From Minisyncoccota bacterium (lineage in GTDB: Bacteria; Patescibacteriota; Minisyncoccia; Phycocordibacterales; UBA1550), in assembly GCA_041660105.1 (NCBI GenBank), contig JBAZWZ010000004.1, positions 176 through 64,175 of the forward strand: a DNA stretch of 64,000 bases, given 5' to 3'. Below are positions 8,782-57,369 of this stretch, one piece after another (position 1 is the stretch's first letter; every line of letters begins with the position of its first letter). Position numbers and translations under genes: made by a program. The notes beneath the pieces are model-generated. The model saw only the letters and a program-made list of their open reading frames with translations. It made no database searches and was not told where the DNA came from.

Positions 8782-8821
8782 TATCTACTTATACAGTACT
8801 ATAGTACTGTATAAGTAGATA
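8782..8821. repeat. 40-bp perfect palindrome TATCTACTTATACAGTAC-TATA-GTACTGTATAAGTAGATA
   Basis: Read directly. Shares its outer ends (TATCTAC...GTAGATA) and TAC-TATA-GTA centre with the 52-bp palindrome at 15896..15947. Confidence 0.55.
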
Positions 8822-15861: not shown

Positions 15862-15895
15862 AAATGAGATTGTAGCATAAATATCCTCAAAGAAT

Positions 15896-15947
15896 AGCCA
15901 CTATCTACCTATTTTATACTATAGTATAAAATAGGTAGATAGTGGCT
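15896..15947. repeat. 52-bp perfect palindrome (24-bp arms AGCCACTATCTACCTATTTTATAC around TATA) ~35 nt upstream of gatB
   Basis: Read directly. Related to the 8782..8821 palindrome. Confidence 0.6.
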
Positions 15948-15956
15948 ATAACTAAC

Positions 15957-25288: not shown

Positions 25289-26089
25289 TTATATCACAAA
25301 ATCTACAATTGCATCCTTGATACGCTGGAAGTAGCTCGTGTTCACAATGATAATATGATCACCGTCCTCGAGAATGACCATGCGAGCCTGAGGCATAATT
25401 TTTTCCATAGTAAATGAATTTTGTATGGGAAAAATTGAATCCTTCCTTCCGTGGATAAGTAGAACGGGGATTTCTATGTTTCCCAAAATATCCTCATAGT
25501 TGGCCTCAAATGCCTGACGCGAAGCAAAAAGATATGCACGTAAACCTGTATTTCGCACATCACTTAGTGTCATCGGAATGTTCCAATCTCGTGCCCCCTG
25601 ATGAGGCAAATAATCAAAATGACTACCCAATGATGCTCTAAATGGCAGAAGCTCGAGGACCCGCGACATCGTCAGAAGTGGTTTCACCAATCTTGCAATA
25701 GGTCGATCGACAGAGAAACTTGGGCTCATGAGGACAAGTTTCCCCAGCATCACTTGATGATGTTTTGCAAACTCAAGCGCAATAAGACACCCAAATGAAT
25801 GTGTGATAAGGGTAAATTTCCCTATGTTAAGGAGTTGAACGAGCTCAAAAAGATCGTCTGCAAAAGATGCAATTTTATATGCATGATATGTTGCAAATTT
25901 CTGAGACAACCCATGCCCCCGAAGATCAAACGTGAGAATATTATAATTATTTCCTAGAAATTCCTCATAAGGTAACCACGCTCCCGAGTGCCCCGAAAGC
26001 CCGTGCATGAAAACAATCGTTGGACGGCCATCCCTAAACTCATTTGTTCGGTAATATATACCTTTTGGTTCAAAAATATGTTCTTTCAT
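25289..26089 (-). CDS. Alpha/beta-hydrolase fold protein
   Basis: HGLSGHSGAW oxyanion region, THSFGC nucleophile elbow, C-terminal GDH. Confidence 0.8.
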   Translation of the reverse strand: MKEHIFEPKGIYYRTNEFRDGRPTIVFMHGLSGHSGAWLPYEEFLGNNYNILTFDLRGHGLSQKFATYHAYKIASFADDLFELVQLLNIGKFTLITHSFGCLIALEFAKHHQVMLGKLVLMSPSFSVDRPIARLVKPLLTMSRVLELLPFRASLGSHFDYLPHQGARDWNIPMTLSDVRNTGLRAYLFASRQAFEANYEDILGNIEIPVLLIHGRKDSIFPIQNSFTMEKIMPQARMVILEDGDHIIIVNTSYFQRIKDAIVDFVI

Positions 26090-27285
26090 TTCCGTATTGC
26101 GTGATAGTACACCTCTTCGAGTTTCTCCACGCTTCTATTAATATCAAACTGCTTACTATTTTCGAGACTTACTTGTCCCATTTTTTCGCGAAGCCCTACA
26201 TCTGTGATAAGGCGGAGCGCCTGTTCACCAAGATGCTCTGGGTTTGCTGTCTCAAAAAGAAATCCGTTCCCGTCCACAAAATATCGTGAAGCACTCATTT
26301 CCGAATCAGAAATGAGTATTGGCTTACCACACGCCATCGCTTCGAGGACGACCATGCCTTCGAGCTCCGCAAATGAAGGAAGTACGAAAATATCCCCTGC
26401 ATTATATGCGAGGATTTTATCCTCATCGGTCACAAGACCTAGGAACGTAACATGCTTACGTAGTCCAAGGTCGTCGACGAGTGCTTCAAGCTTGGGGCGC
26501 AGATGCCCACCGCCAACAATCATCGCGTGAGTTTTTGGATGTTTCTTGAGGATATGTGGCATCGCCAGAATAAGTGTGTCGACAGATTTCTCAGGGAAAA
26601 GCCTGCCTACAAAAACAAGGTTGACCGTGTCTTCTGGGAGACCATAGCGCTTGTAAAAGTCACCGACTTCCCTAGGACTAAACTCACAAACATTAATACC
26701 ATTACTAATCACCATCGAAGGCTTCCCTTCATCGGTGAGATGGTCGAGGAGATTGTACGCCATTTCAGACGGATAAATAATTGTTTCCGCCTTACTGTAA
26801 AGCCACGCGAGATATTGATTCCACGCACGATACAGAAGCGGACGCACGGGTGCAGGCATATCCATGAATAAATTTTCTGGCTGAGAATGAGAATGCGCAA
26901 CAATTTTTATCCCCAGCGCGCGAGCAGCCTTCACGGTGATGATAGCGGCTGACATTGGAAGGATGATGTGCACCACATCAATCTGCTCATCCTGTAAAAC
27001 TTTTTTTACTTCGTTAACAGTAGGAAAAGCAGCGTACCAACCACCAGATTTTGGGATAGGGACACTACGAAAGCGATACGCCTTCATCCCATGATGCTCA
27101 TCGTGTTCTCTGTTTTCTTTTGACTTCGCTCCTATAAAGATTACGTGGTGCCCTCGACTTTGCAAGAGTCGCGCAAAACGCGTTGTAGAGACGATTACGC
27201 CCGCTTTGTAGTCACCGAGTGGGTCGCACACCATTGCAATGCGAAGTTTTCTTGCCCCGTTAGATTTTTCCTGTTCAGTATCCAT
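26086..27285 (-). CDS. GT4-family (Pfam glycos_transf_1) glycosyltransferase
   Basis: GT-B fold with the C-terminal EGMVVLEAMACGKPIL motif (E-x7-E region). Confidence 0.85.
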   Translation of the reverse strand: MDTEQEKSNGARKLRIAMVCDPLGDYKAGVIVSTTRFARLLQSRGHHVIFIGAKSKENREHDEHHGMKAYRFRSVPIPKSGGWYAAFPTVNEVKKVLQDEQIDVVHIILPMSAAIITVKAARALGIKIVAHSHSQPENLFMDMPAPVRPLLYRAWNQYLAWLYSKAETIIYPSEMAYNLLDHLTDEGKPSMVISNGINVCEFSPREVGDFYKRYGLPEDTVNLVFVGRLFPEKSVDTLILAMPHILKKHPKTHAMIVGGGHLRPKLEALVDDLGLRKHVTFLGLVTDEDKILAYNAGDIFVLPSFAELEGMVVLEAMACGKPILISDSEMSASRYFVDGNGFLFETANPEHLGEQALRLITDVGLREKMGQVSLENSKQFDINRSVEKLEEVYYHAIRK

Positions 27286-38034: not shown

Positions 38035-40113
38035 TTACACCTTAGGAGCTGGGTATTCCTTCAAAATTTTTACCGTTTCTGCATGCTTCCCATTTAACTC
38101 CAATACCTGCAAGTAGAATTTCTTTGCTTCAGGATACTCTGGGGCCAATTCAAATGCACGCTTGAATATCTCTTCTGCTTTTGCGGTATTCTTATTACCA
38201 TAATGAGCATTTCCAAGCTCAAAAAGAATTGATTGCTTCGTAGGTGAAAGTTCCGCTGCTTTATTCAAGTAAACGAGCGACTCATCATACTTTCCTACTT
38301 TTGAAAGGAACGAGCCGGCGAAAAGCTGTGCACGTGCATCAGAGGGGTGCTCAGCCGCTTGTTTTTCAAGTTCACTTTTTGTAAGGAGGAGGAACTGTTG
38401 CTGGATGTCTGATATTCCTTTTGATGAATCAAACGCAGTAGTTGAGAAAGGAGTAAGCTGCTCACGAATCTCGGTCTCCCCCATCGAGTCGTAGGCAAGC
38501 GCATCTTTGAAGAAGGCGAGGTTACGGGCAAGTGATGGATCCGTACGATCGGTCAAACCTTTTATAAATGTAATGTTCTGCATAAACGGACTGTAGTTCA
38601 CGTTATAGAGAAGAACGATTGCAAAAATGAAAGCTCCACCAGAAACCATAAACGTAAGGTCTTCTTTTTCTGCTGCATCCTTTTTAATATTTTTTGATTT
38701 ATTCTCTGCGTTTCTGTCAGTTGTCTGCGAAGCAGTGTCAGTTGTCAGTTGTCCCCTGTTCATTCCCTCAACATACGCAAGTATCATTCCGAAGTAAATA
38801 AGACTCGTGATGTTGTCAAACACAAAAAGATTCTGGAAAAAGTAGCCGCCCAGAAGCCCAGTAAGTACGCTTTTTTCTAAGACACTCAGCTCATCCGTGC
38901 GCCCCGTTAGAGACGGAGCCACGCTGCGACCACTCGCGGTCTCTAACGGGGCAGGTCTCCAAATGTAATAAAGAGACAATCCAAAGAGCGATAAATATCC
39001 GAGCAGCCCGAGCGCACCTCCCGCAACAAGCCAATCAAAGACTACGTTGTGCGCGCGGTCAAACCATTGCTCCTGCGCGTACATATTTGGATCATAGTAC
39101 TTACTGAAAACATACATAAAGTTATCCATTCCCCACCCAAGAATAGGTTTTTCCTTGAACCCTTCATACGCCATACCCCACACCATGAGGCGTGCGTGAC
39201 CTGTGCCTTCTGTTGGAGAGATAGCAGCGAGGCGTGAAAGCACGGGGCTTTGCTGTATGAACGATGCATCGCGAATAGCGATAAATCCACCGACAAAAAG
39301 AATTATCGCAATCACAATACCGATTGCACTTTTTCTAATCAACTTATTATTTTTCTCAAAAATGGCGACAAGAAGTGTAGCGAGACCAAGCCCAGCAATG
39401 AGCCCAAGGATCGCTCCACGCGTACCTGAGTGATATAGCGCAAACGTCTGAAGGATAATTATTAAACCATAGATTACCATACGTATATTCCCACCCGTAG
39501 TGTCTAGCTTTTCACGCACTAAAAGAAACAAAGCAATAAAAATATTAAAGAGCGCGTAGGTACCAAGATACTCAGTGTTACCAAGTGTACCATCAATACG
39601 AATGCCTCCTTGGGAAATTTTGACGTGGCCAGCCCATTGCATCACTCCGATGATTGCCATAATGACTCCCGCAAAAAGATTGAAATTCAAATAAGGTCGC
39701 CAAAATCCGCGCACGGTGAGCACTGTTGATGCCACCACAAAATAAGCGAATAGATGAAAGTAGGTGACCACTCCTTCCATACGCTCGTAGTTGGACCAGA
39801 AACTTTTTGCGGGATCTGCTCCAAAAATAGATGCAAGGGTGATGATACCAACAAATGCTGCAAAAGCGTAAAGAAGATAACTTTTCTTTGGACGATATGC
39901 AGGATCAATTACCGCAAGGACAATCCATGCTGAAAACATTATTTCGACAAGAGCGCGAAACGCAAAATTCTTACCTGTAATAAATGGGAAAAACGTACTC
40001 TGTCCAAGAACAATAAACGGAATAAATGGCACCGCCACGAACCCCGCAAAAACAACCGCATTGGCAAAAAATTTATGTAAATTCATCCCGTTAGAAGTAG
40101 GAAATGCGAACAT
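38035..40113 (-). CDS. O-antigen-ligase-like (Wzy_C) polytopic membrane protein with C-terminal TPR repeats; candidate O-oligosaccharyltransferase
   Basis: More than 10 TM helices with a Wzy_C-like core, then C-terminal TPR units (AKAEEIFKRAFELAPEYPEAKKFYLQVLEL). The true start is probably MNLHKFF (~40086), from comparison with the homologous PMM leader. Confidence 0.75.
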   Translation of the reverse strand: MFAFPTSNGMNLHKFFANAVVFAGFVAVPFIPFIVLGQSTFFPFITGKNFAFRALVEIMFSAWIVLAVIDPAYRPKKSYLLYAFAAFVGIITLASIFGADPAKSFWSNYERMEGVVTYFHLFAYFVVASTVLTVRGFWRPYLNFNLFAGVIMAIIGVMQWAGHVKISQGGIRIDGTLGNTEYLGTYALFNIFIALFLLVREKLDTTGGNIRMVIYGLIIILQTFALYHSGTRGAILGLIAGLGLATLLVAIFEKNNKLIRKSAIGIVIAIILFVGGFIAIRDASFIQQSPVLSRLAAISPTEGTGHARLMVWGMAYEGFKEKPILGWGMDNFMYVFSKYYDPNMYAQEQWFDRAHNVVFDWLVAGGALGLLGYLSLFGLSLYYIWRPAPLETASGRSVAPSLTGRTDELSVLEKSVLTGLLGGYFFQNLFVFDNITSLIYFGMILAYVEGMNRGQLTTDTASQTTDRNAENKSKNIKKDAAEKEDLTFMVSGGAFIFAIVLLYNVNYSPFMQNITFIKGLTDRTDPSLARNLAFFKDALAYDSMGETEIREQLTPFSTTAFDSSKGISDIQQQFLLLTKSELEKQAAEHPSDARAQLFAGSFLSKVGKYDESLVYLNKAAELSPTKQSILFELGNAHYGNKNTAKAEEIFKRAFELAPEYPEAKKFYLQVLELNGKHAETVKILKEYPAPKV
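38901..38950. repeat. 13-bp inverted repeat CCCCGTTAGAGAC...GTCTCTAACGGGG (28-nt spacer) inserted in-frame inside the Wzy_C/TPR CDS
   Basis: Shares the core with the CCCGTTAGAGGT elements at 40082..40210 and 41081..41208. Encodes the loop peptide APLETASGRSVAPSLTG. Confidence 0.5.
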
Positions 40114-40210
40114 TTCCGTAGTTAGTTAATGATTATTAATAATTTCTATACTATACCGATATTTTCCATTTGTCTCAAGTCAAAACTTTGGGACCTCGAA
40201 CGGGATTCAT
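40082..40210. repeat. Inverted-repeat element E1: 14-17-bp terminal inverted repeats ATCCCGTTAGA(A/G)GT bracketing ~95 nt and containing the 5' end/start codon of the Wzy_C/TPR gene
   Basis: Left ~60 nt near-identical to E2, including the hairpin GGAAATG-TTCG-CATTTCC. Right end GACCTCGAACGGGATTCAT is the inverted copy of the left end. Confidence 0.55.
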
Positions 40211-40220
40211 AATGTCTAAA

Positions 40221-40335
40221 AGTATACCCCCACATCTACTTTTTTCCTAGTGTTTTACGCAATCTTTATAAAGCGCAACACTGAGCACTAGACCCCGAGC
40301 CCAATCTAAATAATACAAAAGTAGGTGCAGGGGTA
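40221..40335. other. Imperfect ~22-bp inverted repeat (AAGTATACCCCCACATCTACTTTT / AAAAGTAGGTGCAGGGGTATAT) enclosing ~65 nt, immediately downstream of the PMM gene
   Basis: Read directly. Followed on the minus strand by UUUU, so it could be a large terminator or a small structured RNA. Confidence 0.3.
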
Positions 40336-40355
40336 TATCATACTTAAGCTCAATG

Positions 40356-41084
40356 TTAAGAACTTAGCTCACCAATGAACAAACAGACTGCATCCTCACA
40401 CTCTTTGGGAGTGTCTATAGAATATGTAGGGATTACACCTACCACACTATGATCATTCCCTCCCTCAAACAGCGCATCGCCGACATAAACACATTCATCA
40501 CTTCGCCACCCCATCTGATCTATAAAATATTTCACATTGTCGCCTTTATTGCGCGCAGTGAAATCAACACACGTGGTGCCACCAATACGTGCCTGCACGC
40601 CGAGATTCTTCAACTGAGAAATTTCTGGTTCAAAACGACAGAGAAGACCCTTCCGAATCCCCCTATCTTGATCTGCTTTCTCTTTTTCTTCAAGTGGTGC
40701 GTTGTGCCCAATCAATGAATACGATATCTGACACTTTCTGTCTTCAACCAAGTCTTTTAGATTACTAATTTCGAGACCAGCGTGATCAATCATTTTATCA
40801 ACAAGCCTAAAAATCTCATTTTTCTGAATTTCCGTTAGCTCATTACGCCAAATGATTTCACCTGATTGCGCTTCTGCATGATTTCCGTTTTGCGCCATTA
40901 TCACAACTTCTTTTGCAATTTCCCCAATCTGTTTTATTATTTGATCTTTTGTGGCACCAGACACAACGACCACATCACCACCATTTTCTTTGAGACCCAG
41001 CAAACATGCAACCATCGAATCACTTATTTCACTACGCGAGCGAGTAAGTGTCCCATCCATATCAAAAAAGAAATGTTTTTTCAT
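40356..41084 (-). CDS. Eukaryote/archaeal-type phosphomannomutase (HAD-IIB PMM family)
   Basis: FDMDGTLT HAD motif I, GGNDHS (cf. eukaryotic PMM GGNDHE), 242 aa, and end-to-end colinearity with eukaryotic PMM2-type enzymes. Confidence 0.75.
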   Translation of the reverse strand: MKKHFFFDMDGTLTRSRSEISDSMVACLLGLKENGGDVVVVSGATKDQIIKQIGEIAKEVVIMAQNGNHAEAQSGEIIWRNELTEIQKNEIFRLVDKMIDHAGLEISNLKDLVEDRKCQISYSLIGHNAPLEEKEKADQDRGIRKGLLCRFEPEISQLKNLGVQARIGGTTCVDFTARNKGDNVKYFIDQMGWRSDECVYVGDALFEGGNDHSVVGVIPTYSIDTPKECEDAVCLFIGELSS

Positions 41085-41208
41085 CCCGTTAGAGGTAGGA
41101 AACGCTGCGCGTTTCCGTAATTAGTTAATAATTAGTAAGACTTCGACACATCACTTTATAATACCCGCAAGTCCAGAATATAACTGTATGACCTCTAACG
41201 GGATTCAT
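41081..41208. repeat. Inverted-repeat element E2 filling the whole manC-PMM intergenic space; termini TTCATCCCGTTAGAGGT / ACCTCTAACGGGATTCAT; the left end abuts the PMM start codon
   Basis: The left ~60 nt is homologous to E1, with a covarying hairpin GGAAACGC-GCA-GCGTTTCC. The 14-bp termini are perfectly complementary. Confidence 0.55.
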
Positions 41209-41212
41209 TGTT

Positions 41213-42670
41213 TTAGTTTCTTCCATGTTTATCTTCGTAACGCACGATGTCATCCTCTCCGAGATACATACCGCTCTGTACTTCAATAATCTCGAGAATT
41301 TCATTCGTTGGATTTTCAAGACGGTGCACGGTTTCAACAGGGATATCTACCGTTTGATGAGCACTATAAAGAAGTGTGTTTTCGCCGACGGTCGCCTTTG
41401 CGGTACCTTGTATCACGACCCAGTGCTCAGAACGTTTGTGGTGGAGCTGGAGGCTCAGCTGCTCGTGCGGGCTCACCATAATCTTTTTCACCTTATACCC
41501 AAGGCCTTCTTCAAGTACCGTATATGAGCCCCAGGGACGAATCACCGTCTTGTGTTCCTTGTATTGCATCTTGTTGCGCTCCTTGAGCTCTGCGTACGCA
41601 TTTTTAATTTTGTGCGTCTCATCCTTGTGAACCACGAGGACTGCGTCTTCTGTATCCACCACAACGATTCCTGTTATGCCAATAGCGACTGTTGCTCGTT
41701 TTGAATTGCCATATACGAGAGAATTTTCACAATCAATCGTGAGTGCGTGTTCATTGAGAACATTGCCACACTCATCTTTTTCGAGGAGCTCATAGAGTGA
41801 CTTCCACGAACCGATATCCTTCCATCCAAAATCAACTTTAATAACTTCCACTTCCCTACTTCTCTCAAGGAGACCGACATCGATAGACACAGGAGACAAC
41901 ACCGAGAAATGTTCGATAAACTTTTCAGCATCTGCATCTCTGAGAGACACCGCGTGAGCAACTTCGGGTAAATATTTTTGAATTTCTTCATTAAACGTTT
42001 TCGCACTCCACACAAAAATTCCCGCGTTCCAAAGATACCCCTCTTTGATATACTTTTCAGCAATGTCACGTGGTGGCTTCTCAACGAAACATTCGACTGG
42101 TGTGGGGACGTTATCAATCATTTCTCCCACTGGCTTGATGTAGCCATACTCAGTGCTAGGACTATCTGGCGTGATACCAAGCGTAATAAGCTTTCCTTCT
42201 TTTGCGCGCGTAAATGCATCAATCACGCTTTTCTTAAAAGCACTGTCATCTGTGATCAAATGATCCGCGGGGGAAACGAGCATCAAAGCATCCTTGTCCT
42301 TCCTCTCAATAACATCTGCGGCGAGCGCGAGTGCTGGGGCAGTATTCTTTTGTGCAGGCTCAATAATGAGCTGTTCACGAGTAAAACCGTAATCCTTGAG
42401 TTGTAGCAAGATGTCAGTTGAAAATTGCTTGTTCGTGACAATGTAAATATTTTCTTTGGGGACTATATTCTCTATGCGCAAAAAAGTAGCTTGAATAAGA
42501 GTCTTATCCCCTGTGAGTGCGAGAAGTTGCTTCGGGTACAGCTCACGACTAATAGGCCAGAGTCGTGTACCTGATCCACCTGCGAGAATTACAGCGTAAT
42601 GATGATTATTTGATTGCTCCTTCATACTATTTCTAACTTTGTTGTTTTCATCGTACCACAGTTTAGGCAC
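41213..42670 (-). CDS. manC: Bifunctional mannose-1-phosphate guanylyltransferase / mannose-6-phosphate isomerase (type II PMI-GMP)
   Basis: [14 protein letters not shown] nucleotidyltransferase motif and a C-terminal cupin PMI domain. The track start is GTG, so the likely real start is the [12 protein letters not shown] about 45 nt downstream. Confidence 0.9.
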
Positions 42671-57081: not shown

Positions 57082-57351
57082 TTATCCGAGAAAATTTTTA
57101 CTAATAAAAAAATTGTTTAAGACCCTTTTGATGTGATTTCGTCCGTATTGTGTTTTCATATACTTTTCTCGATTATATGCATCTTTACTATTAATGTACG
57201 CTTCATAGTAAATAATTGCAAACGGTGCATTTCTTTTTGTTGAGGCAACTTTTTTTGCATTATGCAATACCAACCGAGCCTTTTTATCTTTCGTACAACC
57301 TGTGTATAATTCACCATTCTTTTTACTCTCAAGTATGTAAACGTATTGCAT
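57082..57351 (-). CDS. Free-standing GIY-YIG nuclease-domain protein (UPF0213-like)
   Basis: YVYILES...GELYTGCTKD...R...H, an 89-aa single-domain GIY-YIG. Confidence 0.75.
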   Translation of the reverse strand: MQYVYILESKKNGELYTGCTKDKKARLVLHNAKKVASTKRNAPFAIIYYEAYINSKDAYNREKYMKTQYGRNHIKRVLNNFFISKNFLG

Positions 57352-57369
57352 AATGAGTTAGTAAAAACT

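Follow-up and report, generated by a model that had tools for sequence, protein, structure and literature searches.

The DNA analysed here is a stretch of 64,000 nucleotides (hereafter the window) from a Minisyncoccota bacterium (contig JBAZWZ010000004.1), and the feature under study is a short hairpin located in frame inside a gene for a Wzy_C (O-antigen-ligase-like) membrane protein with TPR repeats. This gene was identified by Pfam PF04932 and TPR families and encodes a protein of 683 amino acids (aa) on the minus strand (38035-40086), which is 100% identical to protein P0001 of a Candidatus Paceibacterota metagenome-assembled genome (MAG). Its true start lies at 40086 (MNLHKFF, kept in all orthologues). 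The longest open reading frame (ORF) begins at 40113, within an element located immediately upstream, and the additional residues MFAFPTSNG represent the 3′ end of that element (40087-40113). Two elements of this kind, each of 120 nt and referred to below as leader elements, were found on the minus strand of the window: one at the start codon of the Wzy gene (40086-40205) and one at the start codon (41084-41203) of the HAD-phosphatase gene that precedes it (40356-41084).

The hairpin was recovered by an inverted-repeat scan (repeat I10) as two arms of 14 bp, at 38901-38914 (GCCCCGTTAGAGAC) and 38939-38952 (GTCTCTAACGGGGC), which are 100% complementary and separated by a spacer of 24 nt. The original prediction, made from the letters of the window, had described an inverted repeat with 13-bp arms, a 28-nt spacer and an end at 38950; the repeat itself is present, but its dimensions are those given here. 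Its position in frame within the minus-strand Wzy_C/TPR gene was correctly predicted, as was the sharing of its core, CCCGTTAGAG, with both leader elements, where it occurs exactly at 41085/41193 and with one mismatch per arm at 40087/40195. With at most one mismatch allowed, the core occurs eight times in the window compared to 1.76 expected, and none of 100 shuffles reached eight occurrences; exact matches are confined to three inverted pairs (the hairpin, 40087/40195 and 41085/41193). Perfect inverted repeats of at least 14 bp were found on average 0.07 times per shuffled window. Both the repeat and the recurrence of its core exceed chance. On the sense strand the hairpin folds with −34.4 kcal/mol (z = −3.6). 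It belongs to a 50-nt size class (CCCCGTTAGAGGCCGCGAGGGCTCGCAGCGTGCCTCTGCCTCTAACGGGG), has no ORF of its own and encodes no nuclease.

The DNA of five orthologous loci was compared with that of the window, and a clean insertion of 54 nt (38902-38955, minus strand; the boundaries can be moved by 1 nt, to 38901-38954) distinguishes the filled sites (the window, L001 and L002) from the empty ones (L003, L004 and L005), in line with the earlier proposal that a small palindromic element had inserted in frame and been tolerated. The empty site reads TGG CGN|CGC, and the filled sites carry the extra bases CCT GCC CCG TTA GAG ACC GCG AGT GGT CGC AGC GTG RCT CCG TCT CTA AYG GGG, which on the sense strand consist of CCTG followed by the 50-nt palindromic element (CCCCGTTAGAGAC...GTCTCTAACGGGG) and are translated as PAPLETASGRSVAPSLTG. 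L001 and L002 carry exactly the same insert, from which that of the window differs at 2 of 54 bases. Among the three carriers the insert thus matches at 52-54 of 54 bases, whereas the adjoining codons differ at most synonymous sites; only 5-6 bases next to the insert are identical, and synonymous differences start at once.

At the protein level, the orthologue alignment that had been proposed as a check revealed that the segment (18 aa) is not a general feature of the family, since 117 of the best 120 orthologues lack it and only three have it. The 18 residues are absent from 23 of 25 aligned orthologues, including the two closest ones (82% and 78% identity), while two more distant orthologues (P0004 and P0018) have PAPLETASGRSVTPSLMG at the alignment column of the insert. 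In a neighbour-joining tree of 115 orthologues the carriers are found in three clades, their nearest neighbours are without the insert, and their common ancestor comprises 75 leaves. The distribution of the carriers over three clades, together with the near identity of the insert DNA compared to its diverged flanks, indicates that the segment is not an ancestral loop. In an AlphaFold model (mean predicted local distance difference test, pLDDT, 67) the insert residues 378-395 form a coil with pLDDT below 50 between two helices (357-376 and 402-422), which agrees with the loop-like peptide between hydrophobic segments that had been predicted. These comparisons show that the 54 nt were inserted; their source, as the copies described below reveal, is a dispersed family.

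The same conclusion applies to the leader elements, which had likewise been assigned to the family of the hairpin. The closest orthologue locus (L003) is empty at the Wzy start codon and presents the stop codon of the upstream gene, a 41-nt spacer and ...ACT ATGAAT ATG CAC, while L005 is filled and presents the same spacer, ATGAA, an element (TCCTGTCAGAGG...CCTCTAACGGGA) and then TGAAT ATT CAC. The two loci differ by the element plus TGAA, which means that these 4 bp were duplicated. In the window, the leader at 40086-40205 has the termini TCCCGTTCGAGG...CTTCTAACGGGA and is flanked by a duplicated TGAA (plus-strand TTCA at 40082-40085 and 40206-40209); the element ends in A, so that A plus TGAA rebuilds the ATG with which the Wzy gene starts at 40086. 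The leader at 41084-41203, recovered in the repeat scan (repeat I11), has perfect 14-bp terminal repeats (ATCCCGTTAGAGGT), is flanked by the same duplication (plus-strand TTCA at 41080-41083 and 41204-41207) and folds with −46.4 kcal/mol (z = −6.2). The ATG of the HAD gene is rebuilt in the same way, and at both leaders the ATG copy on the upstream side begins a short ORF whose stop codon is within the element. A promoter-like TTGAGA-17-TATAGT was observed in the Wzy leader (40178-40150), the number of such sites being not above the shuffle expectation. Together with the coding copy, the window thus contains three copies of the family, and empty as well as filled sites are available for the coding copy and for a leader copy. 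Upstream of the Wzy gene, L001 and L002 present a different arrangement from the HAD gene and leader element of the window: a PemK-like toxin gene abuts the Wzy start codon (L001:4668-5000 and L002:726-1058).

A scan of a genome collection (one genome per species) with the pattern CCCCGTTAGAG-N(10-40)-CTCTAAYGGGG identified at least 119 loci with the same termini (CCCCGTTAGAG...CTCTAACGGGG), compared to about 4 chance matches expected according to our own estimate from the collection size. Among the matches listed, to which all the figures on short copies given below refer, the hosts include Saccharibacteria and many other Patescibacteria, Omnitrophota, Planctomycetota, Nitrospirota, Cloacimonadota, Bdellovibrionales, one Burkholderiales MAG and one Methanosarcinales MAG. 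Viral contigs are nearly free of the family (one short and eight long matches). The interiors of the copies differ and fall into length classes of 32, 38, 47, 50, 53, 59, 60 and 62 nt. An exact 4-bp direct repeat abuts the termini in 62 of 123 copies; in this abutting register the identity of the flanks is 64-78% per position, and other registers are at background. The preferred targets are TTTA/TAAA, TCAA/TTGA and TGAA/TTCA (a TNNA preference), and among the symmetric copies the flanks are direct repeats in 55 of 94 and inverted repeats in 6 of 94. The family terminal repeats are 13 bp long, comprising CCCCGTTAGAG plus two covarying pairs: positions 12 and 13 vary, yet they are complementary between the two ends in 90 of 94 and 84 of 94 copies, respectively, with complementarity at chance from position 14 on. 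This covariation points to a pairing of the two ends with each other. The hint of the original prediction that the family is or was mobile is therefore supported, by at least 119 further loci in many phyla, by the 4-bp target duplications and by the presence of copies in about 20 unrelated housekeeping genes. In one metagenome locus (L232) the element is followed by TTGA and a second CCCCGTTAGAG, and two family elements in tandem share this single TTGA. No Rfam match was found for the whole window at gathering scores, nor for 38800-41300 at E-values up to 5, and no description of the family was found in Rfam or in the literature searched, the coverage of which was incomplete. A protein search with two insert peptides joined by a linker returned only two small proteins, the query being too short for the word index.

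The copies found inside genes are constrained in length and frame. In 98 of 124 copies the length is 2 modulo 3 (binomial p = 2e-25), which, with the 4-bp duplication, leads to the addition of whole codons. Fifty of the 124 are found within ORFs that stay open for at least 50 codons both before and after the copy; of these 50, all but one (49) are 2 modulo 3, while the lengths of the 52 copies outside ORFs are distributed 26/13/13 over the three residues modulo 3. The 60-nt class and other classes with stops in all frames are found only outside ORFs. The coding copies read PVR[GDE]...SNG[VA] or PLE...LTG, corresponding to two open frames (of three) through the termini, and because of these two open frames copies in tolerant protein loops can survive and be translated. 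Only frame-preserving, stop-free copies persist in genes, a pattern of selection for frame preservation. The constraints on frame and on stop codons argue for translated inserts, and against splicing or ribosomal bypass. The host genes include dnaE, recJ, carbamoyl-phosphate synthase, a class II aminoacyl-tRNA synthetase, a heptosyltransferase, another Wzy_C gene, a radical SAM enzyme, tatD, a Mur ligase, gcvT, ychF, a class II fructose-bisphosphate (FBP) aldolase, tsaD, queA and gltB. For the FBP aldolase a comparison with a solved structure (3q94) is possible, and the alignment breaks at the insert, where residues 134-155 of the query (about 22 residues) stand against two residues of the solved chain. 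In pilin-like genes (L068:6776-6828, L068:7892-7944 and L024:6932-6990) the copies are located at the TTTA of the Phe-Thr codons of the prepilin motif and yield ...SLTG|FTLIEL, the element supplying the Gly just ahead of the FTLIEL motif.

The termini of the short copies are also the termini of longer elements that contain a gene. In one locus (L076:4024-4297) the family termini are 274 nt apart, flanked by TAAG and TAAA, and enclose a complete ORF of 86 aa that matches the Pfam family GIY-YIG (PF01541) above the gathering score (E = 5.7e-15). The nearest solved structure is UPF0213 1zg2 (E = 3.1e-8), with weaker matches to a second UPF0213 protein, 1ywl (E = 0.037), and to the SLX1 homologue 7wme (E = 0.17); on TIGR01453, the model for group I intron endonucleases, the protein reaches 27.4 bits against a cut-off of 56. 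A protein database contains 5095 relatives of this ORF. The best 120 of these are 72-86% identical to the query (whose own sequence is present as P0123), 83 of the 120 have exactly 86 aa and 79 end in KRFLSLTG. The C-terminal LSLTG of the nuclease is the translation of the 3′ terminal repeat; relatives that do not end in KRFLSLTG continue into the flanking DNA, which would be expected where the stop codon is provided by the target, and one relative starts with MNPVRDNK, i.e. with the 5′ repeat read from an ATGAA target. All four homologue genes for which DNA was retrieved are bracketed by the same repeats. One full-length element (L134) has TAAA on both sides, and another (L136), with the termini TCCC/GGGA, is located at the tyrS start codon with TGAA duplicated there, just as the leaders of the window are arranged.

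A metagenome scan for termini 240-270 nt apart identified at least 124 elements. Among those listed, elements of 262-291 nt carry a GIY-YIG ORF in 99 of 124 cases, with 279 nt as the commonest length, and they occupy about 82 distinct sites where the right flank is usually TGAA or TAAA, providing a stop codon. Three features of these nuclease elements recur in the leaders: the termini, the 12-mer TTACGGAAACGC, which is about equally far from the 5′ end in both, and the final 27 nt. No transposase-sized ORF, and none of the DDE type, was found between paired termini in any of the loci listed; two apparent candidates (L082 and L022) turned out to be ordinary gene arrays. Clustering of 949 ORFs near the listed copies revealed no recurrent neighbour, the most frequent family being present in 6 of 119 loci. 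A pair of identical full-length copies located on the same contig was considered as a possible case of transposition, but their flanks are identical as well, which identifies them as duplications.

Taking these results together, we regard it as quite probable that the hairpin in the Wzy_C/TPR gene is a non-autonomous miniature copy belonging to a family of very small mobile elements with terminal inverted repeats. The full-length relatives are units of about 279 bp, in which 13-bp terminal repeats surround one gene for an 86-aa GIY-YIG nuclease of the Slx1/UPF0213 type. Members of the family are inserted at YNNR sites, mostly TNNA, and the short ones usually carry a 4-bp duplication. According to the mechanism proposed here, the nuclease may recognise the paired termini as a hairpin or cruciform, a mode of recognition that would fit both the covariation at positions 12-13 and the kinship to the structure-specific Slx1. 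Acting on the termini, it would mobilise the full-length units and, in trans, the short hairpin copies. The copy in the window separates two arginine codons in the short loop that connects two membrane helices, where it adds a loop of 18 residues, and it probably does nothing useful for the host. A more far-reaching proposal, towards which we lean slightly less than away from it, is that the units of about 279 bp represent a new class of prokaryotic transposon, the sole enzyme of which is a structure-specific nuclease recognising the cruciform or hairpin of its own ends. They would then be among the smallest autonomous mobile elements known, and their hairpin derivatives would colonise the coding regions of essential genes in Patescibacteria, Omnitrophota and Planctomycetota, as the Rickettsia palindromic elements (RPEs) do in Rickettsia.

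Several observations weigh against the main interpretation, that of a miniature mobile copy. The window copy is without a target duplication, its left 4-mer being CCTG and its right one CGCA/CGCG. The same CCTG recurs beside other copies of one subfamily in unrelated genes, as if the element carried these four bases along. A loosely targeted transposon would not be predicted to recur at a single codon in three clades; the data fit three independent gains at the Wzy codon as well as a single old gain with numerous precise losses and homogenisation thereafter. Full-length elements rarely retain an exact duplication, the flanks matching as direct repeats at 15 and as inverted repeats at 8 of the 82 distinct sites listed. 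No near-identical copies were found at different sites of one genome, as would be a sign of recent activity, and no nuclease gene with CCCCGTTAGAG termini is present in the 64-kb window. The interior of the leaders was considered as a decayed nuclease ORF, but no significant similarity emerged (z between −1 and 1.8). Translation of the insert, as opposed to its removal, is suggested by the frame and stop-codon statistics of the family, and by these only. Finally, GIY-YIG enzymes are hydrolytic, and no member is known to function as a transposase, which leaves strand joining without an assigned enzyme.

The nuclease could alternatively act as a homing endonuclease that cuts unoccupied sites, the element being copied in by repair from the occupied allele; in a variant of this explanation, an old insertion has often been lost precisely and is kept uniform by gene conversion among the copies. 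Such a route would explain why the same insert recurs at the same codon in three Wzy clades. It would also be in keeping with the recurrence of orthologous full-length insertions in diverged contigs (site clusters of up to 6), with the absence of a target duplication at the window copy, and with the GIY-YIG domain being a classic homing-endonuclease fold (PMC1564403). On the other hand, the flanks of the Wzy insert were not co-converted (5-6 identical bases, then synonymous differences), a large number of unrelated sites with variable 4-bp direct duplications is not a homing product, and the 86-aa protein is without a DNA-binding extension and scores 27 bits against the cut-off of 56. The unconverted flanks and the many unrelated sites with new duplications speak against homing as the only route, and we consider the explanation rather unlikely, albeit the most probable of the competing ones. 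Less probable still is that the short hairpins are transposable elements of the miniature inverted-repeat type (MITEs) or repeats akin to repetitive extragenic palindromes (REPs), moved by a DDE transposase (IS1380/piggyBac-like) or by a REP-associated tyrosine transposase (RAYT), with the GIY-YIG gene as mere cargo or neighbour. The 4-bp T..A duplication and the CCC ends resemble piggyBac/IS1380. Likewise, hairpin repeats are reminiscent of REP doublets (REPINs; PMC3116915). Nevertheless, no listed locus has a transposase-sized ORF between paired termini and no protein family recurs near the copies (the top family being found in 6 of the 119 listed loci), while the GIY-YIG ORF is the sole gene found repeatedly between the termini (4 of 4 homologue genes; 99 of 124 listed elements) and has its C-terminus encoded by the repeat itself. 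The termini are also without the GTAG/CGTC tag of REPs (PMC3733652).

The remaining explanations are much less probable. A hairpin kept by selection in the Wzy gene because its RNA or DNA structure has a function (for instance as a site of pausing, processing or regulation within the gene) would be consistent with the very stable fold (−34.4 kcal/mol, z = −3.6) and with the near invariance of the insert in three diverged orthologues, in which the one base change in an arm (C to T) leaves the sense strand with a G.U pair. Against it stand the absence of the hairpin from 117 of the best 120 orthologues, the presence of the same element, in either orientation, in intergenic DNA as well as in about 20 unrelated genes, and the lack of an Rfam match even at E-values up to 5. 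Furthermore, many coding copies have a C.A mismatch on the sense strand and read PIRE...SNGA, which rules out the T variant in the arm as a mark of sense-strand RNA structure; we consider this explanation very improbable. Programmed translational bypassing, in which the ribosome skips a stretch of the message, is exemplified by T4 gene 60 and by the mitochondrial byps, and the flanking repeats would then serve as take-off and landing sites. A stable hairpin in a coding sequence and short direct repeats on both sides of many family copies would suit such a process. It would, however, lift the constraints on both frame and stop codons, whereas 49 of 50 coding copies are frame-preserving and stop-free and copies of those classes in which every frame has a stop (the 60-nt class among them) are confined to DNA outside ORFs, so that we give it hardly any credence. 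Least probable of all is an ancestral or lineage-specific loop that is palindromic by chance: its loop position, its reading frame and the absence of a flanking duplication would be compatible with such an origin, but the closest orthologues are without the segment, the carriers are polyphyletic, conservation of the insert DNA far exceeds that of the synonymous sites beside it, and the 50-nt sequence class is present in other genes and phyla as well. As far as sequence comparison can refute an origin of this kind, it does so here.

Some further features of the window are worth reporting. In total, twelve perfect inverted repeats of 14 bp or more were counted in it, including the hairpin and the 41083-41204 leader, compared to 0.07 expected. 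The others are located at 8782-8821 and 15894-15949, and at 472, 4850, 6169, 15957, 22736, 31362, 31434 and 37678; most of the twelve resemble terminator hairpins, while those at 8782 and 15894 have a common core (TATCTAC.TAT...ACTATAGT) and may represent another palindrome family. The core-match scan also located a lone arm-like sequence, CCCCGTTAGAT, after CTTG at 27256-27266 (minus strand), where a glycosyltransferase gene (26086-27285) has its N-terminal codons and the arm is read as ..EKSNGARK. A partner arm is missing, and the sequence may be a relic half-copy. An 89-aa GIY-YIG nuclease gene is present at 57082-57351 (minus strand; tblastn E = 6e-21); compared to the nuclease encoded by the full-length elements, its identity is 48%. 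The gene is without CCCCGTTAGAG termini, is bracketed by a 9-bp inverted repeat of its own (TTTTACTAA/TTAGTAAAA; 57096-57366, 271 nt, with the right repeat at 57358-57366) and has two sugar-nucleotide genes as neighbours; this divergent relative looks like a second repeat-plus-nuclease unit. Lastly, the Wzy protein contains a second patchy segment, GQLTTDTASQTTDRNAENK (residues ~444-470; ~38700-38760, minus strand), which is common to only some of the orthologues (P0004, P0009, P0012 and P0017). Its DNA (GGACAACTGACAACTGACAC) is the same as that of L001 at 20 of 20 bases despite differing flanks. The segment contains heptamer repeats, has a low pLDDT and may be another small in-frame element.

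In-frame palindromic insertions have hitherto been mainly a curiosity of Rickettsia without a known mobilising enzyme, and the family described here is far broader, being distributed over little-studied and mostly uncultivated phyla. It would represent the first case of in-frame hairpins that are physically linked, through shared termini, to a candidate enzyme. If the nuclease drives movement, a structure-specific GIY-YIG mechanism would join the known types of transposase, and the widespread small nucleases annotated as “UPF0213/YhbQ-like” would gain a testable function. For annotation, the inserts are of practical importance, as they inflate or interrupt protein alignments, mislead the calling of start codons (as at 40113) and fragment metagenome assemblies.

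Among the known systems, the RPEs (Ogata et al. 2000/2002, summarised in PMC10969869) are elements of ~100-150 bp reported from Rickettsia only, with no known autonomous partner or enzyme. The opinion that in-frame insertion is rare in bacteria has to be corrected in their light, as the phenomenon is known from them: like the elements described here, they are small palindromes found in frame in many unrelated housekeeping genes, translated and tolerated by the fold. The elements in this study differ in being 32-62 nt long (~120 nt in the long form), in occurring in many phyla, in having mostly a 4-bp duplication and in carrying the termini of a nuclease element. Membership among the RPEs is excluded by the host (a Candidatus Paceibacterota MAG) and by length, the two being set apart by their description and not by a sequence comparison. 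Bacterial MITEs (Correia, ERIC, Nezha and others; PMC10969869) also have terminal repeats, no coding capacity and a dispersed distribution; they have target duplications, as seen in the family though not at the window copy, and derive from a longer element with the same ends, for which the nuclease units are the putative counterpart. The long form described here resembles the Correia elements in being located in 5′ regions, where it may affect expression. Unlike the element of ~279 bp with nothing but an 86-aa GIY-YIG protein, the parents of the known MITEs are insertion sequences with DDE or HUH transposases.

The REP/REPIN-RAYT system (PMC3116915, PMC3733652) is similar in that its hairpin-forming, non-autonomous repeats are thought to be mobilised in trans by one small enzyme that recognises structure. 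REPs, in contrast, carry a GTAG/CGTC tag, are found outside genes and are particular to a species; they leave the target unduplicated and require a Y1 (HUH) transposase. None of this was seen here: the element termini are CCCC/GGGG with TNNA flanks and no REP tag as defined in PMC3733652. GIY-YIG homing endonucleases (I-TevI and Seg; PMC1564403) are likewise selfish and centred on a nuclease, and they recur at the same site in homologous genes. They have long DNA-binding extensions and no terminal repeats, target duplications or hairpin derivatives, whereas the nuclease of the family described here is a bare domain of 86 aa. The closest relatives of the element nuclease with solved structures are the Slx1-like/UPF0213 (YhbQ) proteins. 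A hairpin or cruciform substrate would be in keeping with the cleavage of branched DNA by eukaryotic Slx1. In a phylogenomic survey of GIY-YIG proteins the Slx1/UPF0213 branch is described as vertically inherited repair enzymes, with no mention of terminal repeats or hairpin derivatives (PMC1564403). Coding palindromes and mobile GC clusters of mitochondria (Nematomorpha, PMC6649704) are also perfect inverted repeats located in frame in protein genes, with other sequences and neither a nuclease gene nor a target duplication. Judged by its repeats, frame and relatives, the hairpin in the Wzy_C/TPR gene may best be classed as an in-frame MITE, whose putative autonomous partner encodes no known transposase.

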